From IMG/VR virus record IMGVR_UViG_3300045988_136057, positions 1 through 35,478 of that record: DNA of 35,478 bases; one strand, given 5' to 3'. The notes beneath the pieces are model-generated. The model worked only from the letters and a program-made list of their open reading frames with translations. It made no database searches and was not told where the DNA came from. Positions 1-35,478 of the stretch are shown in pieces (position 1 is the first letter of the stretch; each line of letters opens with the position of its first letter). The DNA comes from a virus. Made by a program: the position numbers and the translations under genes.

Positions 1-55
1 CCCAGCGTAAATCTAAAGTCATACTGTGATAGCCAGTTTTAAAGTCATGAGTAAC
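1..55. repeat. 55-bp terminal direct repeat, identical to 35424..35478 (circular-assembly overlap or terminal redundancy)
   Basis: Direct comparison: cccagcgtaaatctaaagtcatactgtgatagccagttttaaagtcatgagtaac occurs at both window ends. Confidence 0.95.
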
Positions 56-27391: not shown

Positions 27392-27844
27392 TTATTCATA
27401 GCGGTGAGTCGCAACACGCTCACCAGTAAAGTTATTTACGATGTACCACTCACAACCAATAGAGCAGTTATGAGCATATTCAGATAGTTCCGCTTGTGTA
27501 TCAGCTTTCATGATGAGTTTATCATCGTGTAGGCTATACATAGAGTACTTACGATACAAGAACTCCATAGGTACGTTGATGTACTTGTCGACGTTTTCAA
27601 GTTCCTCAGTAAACAAGTTTACCTTGCCGTCTATCTCGTTATAAGCCAGGCCGTCGACTAGGCGGTTTAACTGATAACTCCGGTGAGTGTAAAAGTAGAG
27701 GTCATCTACCTTTATCATATAAAAGTCAGTATTGCTTTTATATCGACCTTGCTCAACGTGTTTCTTGATTACCTCGATGTGTAAAAATGGGTTAGCAGCT
27801 TGTAAAATCTCTTGTAATTTCTTTCTTGTGATTCTCTTAGTCAT
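27392..27844 (-). CDS. Hypothetical early protein, paralog of 27858..28136 with a C-terminal extension
   Basis: Start placed at ATG 27844 (AGGAG, 8 nt spacer). Shares KKLQEILQAANP and ...DGKVNL...VDKYINVPMEFL with the upstream gene. Confidence 0.5.
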   Translation of the reverse strand: MTKRITRKKLQEILQAANPFLHIEVIKKHVEQGRYKSNTDFYMIKVDDLYFYTHRSYQLNRLVDGLAYNEIDGKVNLFTEELENVDKYINVPMEFLYRKYSMYSLHDDKLIMKADTQAELSEYAHNCSIGCEWYIVNNFTGERVATHRYE

Positions 27845-27857
27845 CTTATTCACTCCT

Positions 27858-28136
27858 CTATTTCAACAACTCAACTGGTACATTGATGTACTTATCAACA
27901 CGATTGAACTGTACATCTTTTAATTGAAGTTTACCGTCAACGGTATTTTTAACCATATCAGCAACCAACGCTTTAAGTGTAGGATTGCCTACGATTCTGT
28001 AGTAGTAGAATCCTACTTTTACAGTAAAGCGTACATCATGGCCGCCGATACGGCTATACATATCAACTTTTTCAACTTTAATTTTTTCACCTGGGTTAGC
28101 AGCCTCTAAGATTGCTTTTAGTTTCTTACTTGTCAT
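27858..28136 (-). CDS. Hypothetical early protein, paralog of 27392..27844
   Basis: 92 aa. Contains KKLKAILEAANP and ...DGKLQL...VDKYINVPVELL. First gene behind P_C. Confidence 0.5.
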   Translation of the reverse strand: MTSKKLKAILEAANPGEKIKVEKVDMYSRIGGHDVRFTVKVGFYYYRIVGNPTLKALVADMVKNTVDGKLQLKDVQFNRVDKYINVPVELLK

Positions 28137-28228: not shown

Positions 28229-28260
28229 GTACTTTTTTCAAATTTCATAAAAATTTTTTC

Positions 28261-28318
28261 AAACACAAAAAGAGGGGCTATAGTACTGTGTTCTAGCCAC
28301 TTGTACTATAGCCCCTCT
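28261..28318 (-). terminator. Strong intrinsic terminator ending the late/lysis transcript
   Basis: Perfect 16-bp stem agaggggctatagtac / gtactatagcccctct (28271..28286 and 28303..28318), followed on the minus strand by TTTTGTGTTT. Confidence 0.75.
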
Positions 28319-28391
28319 AAGGTCTATCTTATATCGTTGTAATGCATATGCCACCCTCATATGCTAGGGAGATTGTGAATCACCCCCGGCG

Positions 28392-28916
28392 TTATTTACG
28401 GAACGCCCCCGCTAAGAATCCAATCACTCCAACGCCTGCCCATGTATCACGTTGACGCTTTAAGCGTTGCTCAGTCGCTTTGTTTCGCTTGATTTCCTCT
28501 TTCAATTCTATCAATGAGTTCGAGGCTTGACTTAACCTCTCGTCCTGCTCTGTCAATAGATTCGAGGCTTGATTCAACTCGTTCCTTTGTTGCTCGTTGA
28601 TTGCTTTCAAGGCGGTCAATTCCTGCCCCCTCTTCTCGTTGATACTCTTCAAGGCGGTCAATTCCTCGGCCTGCCTCATCGTTAAGCCGTCGACCTCGCT
28701 CAATGATTGCTTTGAGTTGTTGATTGATTCTTCTGCTTTCTGCAAGCTGCTTTTCAGTTGATTCCAATCGGTCAAGGGTACGCTTATAATCTGCTGCGGT
28801 GCTGATGTAGTTTGAGGCGATTCGCCACGCACTAATGAGCAGCAACAAACAAGCAAAAATAAAAACAATCCGCTTAACAGTAAGATACGATTTAATTTTC
28901 TTGATGTAACCCTCAT
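28392..28916 (-). CDS. Spanin-like lysis protein: N-terminal signal/anchor with a Cys cluster, coiled coil, C-terminal transmembrane helix
   Basis: 174 aa: MRVTSRKLNRILLLSGLFLFLLVCCCSLV..., a coiled coil with the tandem 14-aa repeat ELTALK(S/A)INE..., then ...TWAGVGVIGFLAGAFRK. Last gene of the holin-endolysin cassette. Its Leu, Glu and C-terminal Arg codons fit the genome better than the overlapping frame. Confidence 0.5.
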   Translation of the reverse strand: MRVTSRKLNRILLLSGLFLFLLVCCCSLVRGESPQTTSAPQQIISVPLTDWNQLKSSLQKAEESINNSKQSLSEVDGLTMRQAEELTALKSINEKRGQELTALKAINEQQRNELNQASNLLTEQDERLSQASNSLIELKEEIKRNKATEQRLKRQRDTWAGVGVIGFLAGAFRK

Positions 28917-28920
28917 ACAT
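28471..28920 (-). CDS. Alternative-frame ORF over the same DNA (Rz-like topology: N-terminal TM plus coiled coil); may be spurious
   Basis: MYEGYIKKIKSYLTVKRIVFIFACLLLLISAWRIASNY... followed by charged helical sequence. The ATG at 28920 shares the GGGGG RBS with the ATG at 28916. Uses many CGA and CTT/CTC codons that are uncommon in the genes I sampled. Confidence 0.25.
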   Translation of the reverse strand: MYEGYIKKIKSYLTVKRIVFIFACLLLLISAWRIASNYISTAADYKRTLDRLESTEKQLAESRRINQQLKAIIERGRRLNDEAGRGIDRLEEYQREEGAGIDRLESNQRATKERVESSLESIDRAGREVKSSLELIDRIERGNQAKQSD

Positions 28921-28934
28921 ACAAGCCCCCAGTC

Positions 28935-29336
28935 TTATAAGTCGTCCCAACGTGCCTCATATCCCCGCACGTCAACGTGTACGAATCCTTGATAGTAATA
29001 CTTACCAATACCGCCCTCAATACCTAACTCTTGACCGCAAGCCTCAGCGACCTCGGCCAAGTAGTCAACGTCAACGCCGTCATATGTAATGTCGGCTGCT
29101 GTGCCCTCAACATGTTGAGAGTTAGATACGCCGCCTACTTCCTCATTATGAGCAGGACAACGGTATCCACTTGTGATAGTAACAGGAACGCCTAAACGCT
29201 CACGGATAGCGTCTAAAAGGTCTACAAGCCGCTTGTCTATGATATGGTCTAGGACGTTACGACCTAAGTTATCAGTTTCGTGTCTATGGCAACTACAAGC
29301 GAACTCGTAGTCATCAAAGTATGTTCCAATCTTCAT
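28935..29336 (-). CDS. Endolysin, peptidase M15 family (zinc D-Ala-D-Ala carboxypeptidase-like), single domain
   Basis: SGYRCPAHNEEVGGVSNSQHVEGTAADI carries the H..D...H-type M15 motifs. 133 aa with no cell-wall-binding domain. Follows the holin gene. Confidence 0.8.
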   Translation of the reverse strand: MKIGTYFDDYEFACSCHRHETDNLGRNVLDHIIDKRLVDLLDAIRERLGVPVTITSGYRCPAHNEEVGGVSNSQHVEGTAADITYDGVDVDYLAEVAEACGQELGIEGGIGKYYYQGFVHVDVRGYEARWDDL

Positions 29337-29403: not shown

Positions 29404-29934
29404 TTATTTCTTTAAAATCATATCGATTCTTGCACTAACTAATTCCAATAGTCCTGCTATTGTTGTATTCCCGCCGTCCCTAAGATTTTCTAAGATAGAT
29501 AAGAACTCAACAGAGGCAAGGTATAGCCATGTGATATTGACAGCGAACGCATATTGACCGCTAATGAAATCAAAACACCACGCCGCAGCAGTTGCCACGC
29601 AGTAAGTGAGTACCTTTGTAATAAAAGGCTTTCTCATGTGTTTTGAGTTAATCAATCCTTTACCAAATGCCGCAGGAATGGCGATATACTTATCAATGCT
29701 GCTCAGATTATCCGGTGTAGCACCTAAATCAATCAACATCTTATATCCAATAGCACCCCATTTAGTGATAAGGTCAAGGAATACAAGAATAATGAATATA
29801 CCTAACACCTGGACGTGTTTCAATCCAAGAATGTATATAGCCACCTCGGCGATAATCGATAATAAGACTTTTAGTACAAAGGATTCAGTCAGCGTTTCCC
29901 AGGCTTTATCTAAGAATGTAGTCAGTTCGTTCAT
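29404..29934 (-). CDS. Holin (Phage_holin_4_1 / TcdE-like, multi-pass membrane protein)
   Basis: 176 aa with about four hydrophobic helices. LDLITKWGAI ... INSKHMRKPFITKVLTY resembles the holin family 4 pattern. Directly upstream of the endolysin. Confidence 0.7.
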   Translation of the reverse strand: MNELTTFLDKAWETLTESFVLKVLLSIIAEVAIYILGLKHVQVLGIFIILVFLDLITKWGAIGYKMLIDLGATPDNLSSIDKYIAIPAAFGKGLINSKHMRKPFITKVLTYCVATAAAWCFDFISGQYAFAVNITWLYLASVEFLSILENLRDGGNTTIAGLLELVSARIDMILKK

Positions 29935-29956: not shown

Positions 29957-30970
29957 TTATAAATGGTCTATAGTACCGCCGGTATTGATATATTTGTTAT
30001 TGTTTTCGTCCCAAACTATATCACTATAATTTATAATACGTAATTGTTTAGCACCATGCTCAACGGTACCGATTACAAATGCAGTATTTGTCTCATTGTC
30101 AAAGCGGTCAACAACTCCAAAACTGACATTCTTAGGGTTTCTAATGTAAATTGTTTTATCTTTAAATGTATCTTGTCGAATAGTACCGTTTTTATTGATA
30201 TATAAAGTCTTTTTCTTATTAGCATAAAGTTCGATTGTATCAATATTAGATTTATCCCACTTACCAAAGAAGTTGAATTGAGGCTCAGCCGGCCAGTTAT
30301 TAGACGTATTACTGCCTGTATATCCTGTTACATTGGCGACGATTTTACGGCCATACAAAGAGTATTTGACGCCGTTTTCTTCATAAGTATCGTCTGCTGG
30401 TCTTTCGATTTCTGCTGCCTTGCCTTTGATTGTATAATCACCTACCTTATCACTTGTGTAATTATGATATGTCAATTTCACATCATCTTCACCTAAAGGC
30501 TCGATTGTGATATTACCAACGCCTGCCTCGTCCAATCCGAACACGTCGATATCATTACCTACGACTTTGACGGTGTAATGAGGCTCGCCCTCAATACCAA
30601 TCACTCGCTGACCTCGTGCAGCATTGCCAACAGTCAAAGGTTTGAATGTAGTTCTAGGGAACGGCTTACCGATATTATCAATCAATGCGATGAGTACATC
30701 ATCAACGGTAGAATCCTCAACCCATACGTTACCGTGCAGCAACTTTTGATATGCCTTTTCTGCACTTGCGTCTTGGCCGTCCTTGCCTGGTTTACCCGGC
30801 TCGCCTGGCTCACCTTTAGGGCCTGGCTCACCTGGTTCACCTTTAGGGCCTGGAACTCCAGGCTCACCCTCACCGCCACGTCTACCAGGTACACCAACAT
30901 TAATTACAATCGTCTTAACGTCCTCAACTGAAACGTCCGGTACATTTACATTTTTGTTTTCATCTGCCAT
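29957..30970 (-). CDS. Collagen-like repeat tail fibre / receptor-binding protein
   Basis: G-X-Y tract GVPGRRGGEGEPGVPGPKGEPGEPGPKGEPGEPGKPGKDG near the N-terminus. Lies in the fibre region upstream of the lysis genes. Confidence 0.75.
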   Translation of the reverse strand: MADENKNVNVPDVSVEDVKTIVINVGVPGRRGGEGEPGVPGPKGEPGEPGPKGEPGEPGKPGKDGQDASAEKAYQKLLHGNVWVEDSTVDDVLIALIDNIGKPFPRTTFKPLTVGNAARGQRVIGIEGEPHYTVKVVGNDIDVFGLDEAGVGNITIEPLGEDDVKLTYHNYTSDKVGDYTIKGKAAEIERPADDTYEENGVKYSLYGRKIVANVTGYTGSNTSNNWPAEPQFNFFGKWDKSNIDTIELYANKKKTLYINKNGTIRQDTFKDKTIYIRNPKNVSFGVVDRFDNETNTAFVIGTVEHGAKQLRIINYSDIVWDENNNKYINTGGTIDHL

Positions 30971-34912: not shown

Positions 34913-35478
34913 TAGCTAGCCCCCATTCTAATAATCTTAGTCGGAGCCTCGTCATTATGCCATGCATAGTTGACGTTGCCATATTTCATAGCATAGCCAC
35001 GTTTCGATGAGTTACCAAAGCAACCACCTGAGCCGTCTGCTATTACAACATGGTCGTCATTGCCATATATGAGCAAGTCGCCCTTGTTAGCATTGCCTGT
35101 GTACTGCTCAGTAGTGTAGCCTTTAGCCTCTAAGTTTTCTCTGAGTGTATCCACCCTTGCAGTACCCTTATTGAACTCATCTTTCAAATCTGAGTTGTAA
35201 TAAGAGCCCGCTGCACATACTGTATCAGCACAGCCATTACTACCATATTGAGAAACTCGGCCGTCATTAGCACTAAACGCCGTATCGACTTGTCCAGCTG
35301 TACCGCCTGCTGCTGTTTTCAATGTAGACGCCCCCTTTTTATTTTTGGCTTTTTCAGCTTGAATCTTTTTGACTGTTTCAGCGTCTGTGTCTTTCTTGAC
35401 CTCATAAGATTGAGGAGCGTCACCCCAGCGTAAATCTAAAGTCATACTGTGATAGCCAGTTTTAAAGTCATGAGTAAC
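34912..35478 (-). CDS. C-terminal part of the hub/XkdQ-like protein (same gene as 1..1033) carrying an NlpC/P60-like cysteine peptidase domain
   Basis: In frame with 1..1033 through the 55-bp overlap, giving 1,545 nt and 514 aa in total. C-terminus NGCADTVCAAGS ... KGDLLIYGNDDHVVIADG resembles the Cys...His arrangement of NlpC/P60 hydrolases. Confidence 0.7.
   Translation of the reverse strand, partial: VTHDFKTGYHSMTLDLRWGDAPQSYEVKKDTDAETVKKIQAEKAKNKKGASTLKTAAGGTAGQVDTAFSANDGRVSQYGSNGCADTVCAAGSYYNSDLKDEFNKGTARVDTLRENLEAKGYTTEQYTGNANKGDLLIYGNDDHVVIADGSGGCFGNSSKRGYAMKYGNVNYAWHNDEAPTKIIRMGAS

Follow-up and report, generated by a model that had tools for sequence, protein, structure and literature searches.

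The window analysed here covers positions 1 to 35,478 of the IMG/VR virus record IMGVR_UViG_3300045988_136057, a stretch of 35,478 nucleotides (nt), and the element under study is a pair of reading frames, called A and B, which lie over the same DNA at the end of the late operon of this phage. All the long open reading frames (ORFs) of the window are on the minus strand, and its GC content is 41.3%. The elements of the A/B region are listed below, with protein lengths in amino acids (aa) and hydrophobicity on the Kyte-Doolittle (KD) scale.

28392..28916 (-): gene A, 174 aa, in the +1 frame of B; signal peptide, linker, long helix, KRQRDTWA motif and C-terminal hydrophobic segment
28471..28920 (-): gene B, 149 aa; basic N-terminus, transmembrane (TM) helix at residues 18-32 and one long charged helix
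28914..28920 (-): dual start ATGTATG, with the B ATG at 28920 and the A ATG at 28916, 4 nt apart and out of frame by +1
28926..28930 (-): common Shine-Dalgarno sequence GGGGG, 5 nt before the B ATG and 9 nt before the A ATG
28824..28916 (-): signal peptide of A, residues 1-31, with probable cleavage at VRG/ES (the slash marks the cut, here and below)
28825..28869 (-): TM helix of B, IVFIFACLLLLISAW, residues 18-32; the same DNA encodes the Leu/Phe-rich h-region of the signal peptide of A, with KD values above 1.6 in both frames
28474..28726 (-): six 42-nt (14-aa, two-heptad) units, in the coiled-coil part of both proteins
28437..28460 (-): KRQRDTWA, encoded past the B stop and present only in A; the most conserved motif of the family
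28401..28442 (-): C-terminal hydrophobic segment of A, WAGVGVIGFLAGAF, followed by RK; about 14 Gly/Ala-rich residues, KD 1.63 over a 15-aa window

The two frames overlap by 446 nt (28471..28916), corresponding to 99% of B and 85% of A, in a register where positions 1, 2 and 3 of A codons are positions 2, 3 and 1 of B codons. Frame B is open over 28471..28950 (-) from a TTG, and its conserved start is the ATG at 28920. A preliminary description of the region had recognised one spanin-like gene with a second long frame open over it. The underlying sequence facts (the ORFs, the ATGs 4 nt apart, the GGGGG, the repeat at 28608 and 28650) are confirmed and refer to the minus strand; the account of one gene plus a second frame gives way to one of two overlapping genes, both under selection. 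On the sequence evidence described below, both frames very probably encode proteins.

Relatives of the region were collected as 10 GTDB prophages, 80 IMG/VR loci found via A, 80 IMG/VR loci found via B, 11 close metagenomic relatives and 24 distant loci, the last being reached through P0069, a protein 31% identical to A. The B-found set removes the ascertainment bias of the A-found one. The ten prophage copies lie in genomes of Veillonella parvula, V. atypica and Veillonella sp., and exact matches put the distant P0069 clade in Megasphaera hexanoica and M. elsdenii. The host of the window phage is Veillonella, a diderm Firmicute, in agreement with the earlier guess of a Negativicutes host. In V. 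parvula UTDB1-3 (loci L002 and L005) two copies of the module are found, about 800 kb apart on the chromosome.

Among the 198 loci examined, A and B are open in all the complete ones, and the third frame (frame C), which contains 20 stops in the window, is never open for more than 24 codons. In the A-found loci A is open for 174-232 codons and B for 149-206 in 83/83 cases, with frame C at 24 or fewer; in the B-found loci A is open in 80/80, contig ends aside. Both frames are kept in 11/11 close relatives, and in the 24 distant loci (28-35% identity to A) the open lengths are 151-193 codons for A, 125-156 for B and at most 20 for frame C. The second frame, which had been noticed as an Rz-like one with an N-terminal TM helix and a coiled coil at the same ribosome binding region, is not noise.

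The chance of finding both frames open was evaluated in several ways. Given the protein encoded by A, 14.5 stops are expected in B with the codon usage of the window, and 6.1 when the codons of A are permuted; none is observed, and 0/2000 such shuffles are free of stops in B. Given the protein encoded by B, 11.3 stops are expected in A with window usage, and again none is observed. A T at position 3 of A codons is found in 0/52 cases before AA, AG or GA codons, compared with 18/94 elsewhere and with 33% for third positions window-wide. Finally, the window sequence was evolved by forward simulation under single-frame selection to 32% divergence, as actually seen: whichever frame was selected, the other acquired 6-9 stops and remained open in 0/300 runs.

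These figures bear on the possibility that only A is a gene, a unimolecular spanin anchored at both ends, and that B is open by accident. Of the two ORFs, A is the longer and the one chosen by most gene callers: in a large protein collection A homologues form 54 clusters (863 by profile search) and B homologues 15, the two having been reported by gene callers in different assemblies. Furthermore, the tail of A is clearly coding. Against this, B is open in all the complete loci despite the 6-14 stops expected, and together with the substitution pattern, the translation signals and the missing lipobox described below, this makes an accidental B very improbable. The reverse possibility, in which only B, the protein of PHROG 18860, is a gene and A its shadow, is most improbable. 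In its favour, a curated phage family is matched by B alone, the M. elsdenii gene annotated in RefSeq is B, and permuting the codons of B, already adapted, leaves A open in 16% of shuffles; yet A is open in all the B-found loci, and simulated selection on B only introduces 6-8 stops in A.

The substitution pattern was analyzed on 28 loci, with the homologous endolysin and holin genes as controls. Diversity at codon positions 1/2/3 is.123/.080/.431 in the endolysin and.143/.049/.417 in the holin; in the overlap it is flat (.133/.184/.228, by the positions of A), and in the 25-codon tail of A beyond the B stop it becomes gene-like again (.173/.175/.327). The ratio of position 2 to position 1 is 1.39 in the overlap (bootstrap confidence interval, CI, 1.09-1.76) versus 0.65 and 0.34 in the controls, and that of position 3 to the mean of positions 1 and 2 is 1.44 (1.21-1.71) versus 4.2-4.4. 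In a close clade of 7 distinct sequences without indels, variable columns are distributed as 33/45/64, compared with 59/42/208 in the controls (chi-square p=3e-6).

Apparent synonymous rates are 0.39 for A and 0.27 for B, versus 1.4-1.6 in the neighbouring genes, so that sites synonymous in A evolve about 4 times, and sites synonymous in B about 5 times, more slowly than in those genes. The former result, with position 2 varying more than position 1, speaks against an accidental B, and the latter against A as a shadow of B. Non-synonymous rates (dN) of A and B exceed those of the neighbours. Recent horizontal exchange, considered as a cause of the low synonymous rates (dS), was ruled out on the grounds of this higher dN and of the greater variation at position 2 than at position 1. 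In the stop-filled frame C dN/dS is 1.16.

The measurement of constraint frame by frame, suggested in the preliminary description, found synonymous sites slowed in both frames. The OLGenie-type estimate for B is dNN/dNS=0.65 (CI.49-.87), a conservative value, since selection on A alone predicts 1 or more. Two observations temper the case for dual coding. The corresponding estimate for A, dNN/dSN=0.42 (CI.31-.54), could be explained by selection on B alone, the NN sites including position 2 of B; and the constraint on B is modest, with dN/dS about 0.65-0.74 and only 11-22% identity of B between Veillonella- and Megasphaera-type loci. As the former estimate is not decisive by itself, the case for A rests on its tail, on the maintenance of its ORF, on its own translation signals and on the slow B-synonymous sites. 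The tail runs 64-103 nt past the B stop, carries KRQRDTWA and varies mostly at position 3, as would not be expected of a shadow of B. That the additional constraint comes from a nucleic-acid structure or a DNA site, and not from a second protein, is barely credible: a conserved structured element, the hairpin 3' of A, does adjoin the gene, but the constraint consists of stop avoidance in one particular frame over 446 nt, with TM helix, heptads, start codons and Shine-Dalgarno sites preserved and indels in 42-nt units.

The translation signals are also conserved. ATGTATG and the Shine-Dalgarno sequence are kept in 83/83 Veillonella-type loci, and ATGTATG also in 11/11 close relatives; GGGGG, AGGAG or GGAGG is found in relatives at the Shine-Dalgarno place. 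In the Megasphaera-type clades, at ~25% identity, B starts at TTG-TAT-CTT-CCG, behind AGGAGGTGAT. There A starts, in all complete loci but one, at a TTG located 28-49 nt past the B start, and has its own Shine-Dalgarno sequence (GAGGAGG or GAAAGGAAG) 9 nt upstream of this TTG, within the B codons K-E-E-V. The main Shine-Dalgarno sequence of the distant clades thus serves B and not A, which is hard to reconcile with an accidental B, just as the separate signals of A are with B as the only gene. Two initiation sites for two overlapping frames are also a feature of Rz/Rz1. In the window lineage the two starts have converged on one Shine-Dalgarno sequence, and A and B of the window phage probably both use it. 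A programmed frameshift producing a B-A fusion was ruled out, both frames being open over their full length and A having its own start and Shine-Dalgarno sequence in distant relatives.

The coiled-coil part of both proteins is made of 42-nt units. There are exactly two copies of the 16-mer CAAGGCGGTCAATTCC, at 28608 and 28650; at an offset of 42 the best 42-nt window shows 76% identity, and another pair, at 28507 and 28549, shows 80%. Tandem Repeats Finder (TRF) at default scoring did not call the 42-nt repeat, which was detected by offset analysis and repeat search. Indels among relatives correspond to whole 14-aa units in both frames, and some relatives are without exactly one unit. The helical region has grown through 42-nt, two-heptad duplications that leave both frames intact. 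The hydrophobic core positions of the A and B helices coincide (Fisher p=2.6e-6): Leu in A is encoded by TTR in 13/15 cases, which are read in B as NTT (Ile, Leu, Val or Phe). As the same TT dinucleotide gives Leu in A and one of these residues in B, the hydrophobic heptads coincide, and two coiled coils are accommodated on one DNA.

B has a hydrophobic segment at residues ~12-36 (KD windows above 1.6). Variation in the DNA encoding both its TM helix and the h-region of A falls on position 1 of B codons (position 3 of A), swapping hydrophobic residues in B. The AlphaFold2 (AF2) model of B is a single helix from residue 2 to 148, with a predicted local distance difference test score (pLDDT) of 89.7; as modelled, its topology is of type II and similar to that of an inner-membrane spanin (i-spanin), with a basic N-terminus, an N-terminal TM helix and a periplasmic helix. 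B is a full-length member of phrog_18860 (E=6.6e-33, residues 7-148 against profile positions 3-135 of 141), a family with neither a functional annotation nor any sign of an overlapping second gene. The PHROGs search recognises B only, not A.

A has two hydrophobic segments, at residues ~8-32 and 158-172. A signal-peptidase-I-like site of the AxA/AS type (SHA/AS, ALA/AS, SLA/AS or VHA/NS) is found in 75/76 A relatives, and a canonical lipobox, [LVI][ASTVI][GAS]C, in 0/76; in the window no ORF bears a lipobox in any frame. The topology of a unimolecular spanin (u-spanin) of the T1 gp11 type, earlier proposed for A, was abandoned on these counts and because the hosts are without lipoprotein localisation (Lol) sorting; the missing lipobox likewise speaks against A acting alone as a spanin anchored at both ends. 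In the Megasphaera-type A a non-canonical AG[FWYL]C is conserved. The conserved Cys of the signal region was considered as a lipidation site and not adopted, its context being non-canonical and its position shifting; Cys codons (TGY) arise in A where B reads Leu, as CTG or TTG, followed by a codon starting with T or C.

The signal peptide of A is followed by a disordered linker of ~16 residues, with a conserved TIxVPLxxWNxLK. The AF2 model of A (pLDDT 81.6) shows helices at residues 3-29 and 48-172, and is helical, not beta. KRQRDTWA is invariant in the aligned Veillonella- and Megasphaera-type representatives, with a few relatives showing differences, e.g. KQQRTIW. The C-terminal segment consists in relatives of 13-17 Gly/Ala-rich, weakly hydrophobic residues, preceded by RLKRQRD and ending with K or R. 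The preliminary description had seen here a C-terminal TM helix: a hydrophobic segment is present, but it is made of only ~14 weakly hydrophobic, Gly/Ala-rich residues, and anchoring of A in two membranes is no more than a possibility.

The late operon ends, in order, with a collagen-like fibre gene, the holin, the endolysin and the A/B overlap region, which is in the last gene position before the operon terminator. The elements flanking A/B are the following.

28935..29336 (-): endolysin, 133 aa; single Peptidase_M15_3 domain at residues 10-122 (Pfam 4.2e-23; phrog_894 3.3e-45)
29404..29934 (-): holin, 176 aa; Phage_holin_4_1 (PF05105, 3.7e-05; phrog_199)
28344..28364 (-): conserved hairpin GCATATG-AGGGTGG-CATATGC, just 3' of the A stop, in Veillonella-type phages
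28266..28318 (-): intrinsic terminator of the late/lysis operon, with a 16-bp stem and U5; fold -51.1 kcal/mol, z=-5.1

The Pfam match bears out the earlier reading of the endolysin as a bare 133-aa M15 domain. The terminator was detected by folding, a simple terminator scan having no match at the operon end, where the loop is larger than 8 nt. In the relatives the gene immediately upstream of A/B is always the endolysin. Three unrelated types of endolysin occur there: an M15 peptidase accompanied by a 176-aa holin, a 191-aa enzyme accompanied by a 130-aa holin, and GH25-like muramidases. The module is mosaic relative to the rest of the lysis cassette (L002, L004-L011 and others; L102-L125).

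Classical spanins need an outer-membrane lipoprotein. The genes lolA-E are missing from Negativicutes, and in V. parvula outer-membrane lipoproteins went undetected (PMC5491611). In the absence of Lol, a classical outer-membrane spanin (o-spanin) or u-spanin could not be sorted. From this, from the constant position after the endolysin and last before the terminator, from the diderm hosts and from the lack of a lipobox ORF in the window, we infer, with moderate confidence, that A and B act in lysis by disrupting the envelope or the outer membrane, a role suggested by gene position and topology. The best reading is of an overlapped pair that does without a lipoprotein and is functionally analogous to a two-component spanin. 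A and B are assigned to neither spanin family, as defining features of these families were looked for and are absent, and they are the best candidates for the outer-membrane breach by phages of double-membraned Firmicutes. Kongari et al. raised the possibility of non-canonical spanins that have escaped recognition, among them type I inner-membrane proteins or proteins with other anchors (PMC6139136).

In such a mechanism the A/B pair would carry out the final step of lysis, taking the place of a spanin in a host with an outer membrane and no Lol sorting. B would sit in the inner membrane with its N-terminus inside, its helix of ~115 residues projecting into the periplasm. A would be exported via its signal peptide, and its helix of ~110 residues would end in the basic KRQRDTWA cluster and the short Gly/Ala-rich hydrophobic segment. 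This segment could be either a type I anchor in the inner membrane or a membrane-active end engaging the outer one; the outer membrane might be engaged through the basic and hydrophobic C-terminus of A or, alternatively, through a free N-terminal segment of A. Once the endolysin has removed the wall, the A and B helices would jointly destroy the outer membrane. A more specific version, a lipoprotein-independent spanin system peculiar to Lol-less diderm Firmicutes, with helices assembling after wall degradation and fusing or rupturing the outer membrane, is entertained tentatively, the balance being somewhat against it. If true, it would constitute a third spanin class, and the pair would be among the most complete natural cases of two interacting structural proteins read from one sequence.

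Several results count against a spanin-like role. The predicted anchors of A and B could both lie in the inner membrane, and a link to the outer membrane would then be unsupported. No periplasmic Cys is found in 76 sequences, from residue 37 to the 25th residue before the end in A, or past residue 45 in B. Similarity to phrog_214 (Rz-like spanin) is not significant (E=0.026 for B, 0.05 for A), and searches against Pfam, NCBIfam, PADLOC, PDB sequences and, by Foldseek, BFVD returned for A and B sub-threshold coiled-coil noise alone. The region and either protein have no match among INPHARED phages by blastn or tblastn, and full-text literature searches for spanins, phage lysis or dual coding in Veillonella, Megasphaera or Negativicutes returned nothing on the A/B module.

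The possibility has to be considered that both frames are real membrane proteins which do not disrupt the outer membrane, and which serve in antiholin-like timing, in tethering or activating the endolysin, or in a lysogen, e.g. in superinfection exclusion. The proposed function rests on gene position and topology, spanin homology is missing and both anchors may be in the inner membrane, all of which would fit such roles. They are nevertheless considered unlikely. The association of the pair with the endolysin holds over three unrelated endolysin/holin sets, and its place as last gene of the late operon is the canonical spanin slot. The host is a diderm, the window offers no other candidate for outer-membrane disruption, and periplasmic helices of ~110 residues match i-spanin dimensions.

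Taken as a spanin analogue, the pair can be compared with known systems. Like lambda Rz/Rz1 and P2 LysB/LysC (PMC6139136), A and B close the lysis cassette of a phage with a diderm host; B combines an N-terminal TM helix with a periplasmic coiled coil; A starts inside B in the +1 frame and ends past it, as in the 'overlapped' class; and in distant clades A has its own Shine-Dalgarno sequence inside B. An o-spanin, however, is an unstructured outer-membrane lipoprotein of ~60 aa, whereas A is a helical protein of 174 aa with a signal-peptidase-I-type signal and a hydrophobic C-terminal end. An embedded o-spanin begins at ~0.4-0.5 of the length of its i-spanin, and the overlap of the Jersey pair is 155 bp (PMC6139136), compared with 446 nt for A/B. 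Periplasmic Cys residues, present in most Rz/Rz1 pairs, are missing in A/B, as are homology and, in the host, Lol.

With T1 gp11 A shares an N-terminal export signal and a C-terminal hydrophobic segment on one chain, and the last position in the lysis cassette. It differs in having no lipobox (0/76), in a periplasmic part formed by one long helix and not by beta strands, in being always co-encoded with a second protein, and in its short C-terminal segment (~14 aa) with positive charges on the N-terminal side. The 'disruptin' gp28 of phage phiKT is a cationic, membrane-active peptide responsible for a spanin-less disruption of the outer membrane. The C-terminus of A, with its basic cluster and short hydrophobic segment, resembles a membrane-active peptide of this sort, which would not need Lol; A is far longer, is exported via a signal peptide and is paired with B.

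Same-strand gene pairs with long overlaps and interacting products are known from phiX174, as A/B and D/E. A mammalian example, XLalphas/ALEX (PMC1186735), also has two unrelated proteins encoded by one DNA stretch in different frames, both selected. Compared with pairs of this type, A and B are both full-length membrane-anchored coiled coils, with heptad cores drawn from the same dinucleotides, and have start codons 4 nt apart behind a single Shine-Dalgarno sequence. They represent an unusually clean case of near-total dual coding, with 446 nt read as two full-length proteins from Veillonella-type to Megasphaera-type phages, and the TT-sharing rule for two coiled coils is simple, and useful in studies of how overlapping genes evolve and in design. 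Veillonella and Megasphaera are abundant in the human mouth and gut, and A/B is a concrete candidate, testable by mutation, for phage exit from diderm Firmicutes.

The region is subject to a systematic annotation error: gene callers and RefSeq report one frame, under inconsistent and sometimes misleading names, and all the annotated genomes examined therefore lack half of the module. Annotations of one frame only are found in V. parvula UTDB1-3 (L002 and L005), in the M. elsdenii type (L117 and L118) and in the M. hexanoica type (L113). WP_027895487.1 is B, labelled 'Tar ligand binding domain-containing protein', and AXB81797.1 is A, labelled 'hypothetical'. The UniRef entry A0A8S5MVB2, labelled 'Peptidoglycan endopeptidase', is A extended spuriously at its N-terminus into the endolysin gene.

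The two ends of the window carry an exact 55-nt direct repeat (1..55 and 35424..35478). This is the signature of an assembler k-mer overlap in a circular contig, and the window is thus a complete phage genome of ~35.42 kb; contigs of its close relatives are 35.4-35.8 kb long. Directly upstream of the holin, 29957..30970 (-) encodes a protein of 337 aa in which collagen-like repeats (GEPGxPG) are present. It is probably a tail fibre, and its orthologues in relatives are matched by Pfam Collagen, in most cases weakly.

The hairpin 3' of A has a 7-bp stem and a conserved 8-nt loop, [AC]RGG[TC]GGA, and compensatory double changes are found in all 7 stem pairs (16 loci). It is preceded, at ~28379..28387 (-), by the sequence GGGGGTGAT, complementary to the anti-Shine-Dalgarno; the anti-Shine-Dalgarno-complementary GAGGTGATCC after the A stop has no start codon at Shine-Dalgarno distance. 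No Rfam family matches the hairpin element above threshold, and in the Megasphaera-type loci inspected it is not present, plain terminator-like hairpins being found at that place instead. The element might be a 3' stabiliser of the mRNA, or a packaging or attachment signal. A 33-aa ORF (MRVAYALQRYK..., 28259..28360 (-)) that spans both the conserved hairpin and the stem of the terminator is unlikely to be a gene.

Past the terminator, the next transcription unit opens with two adjacent ORFs of 153 and 92 aa, at 27392..27853 (-) and 27858..28136 (-). Profile searches of the window proteins gave no family match for either of them; from their sequences they look like paralogues, with the common motifs L..IL.AANP and VDKYINVP.E.L.

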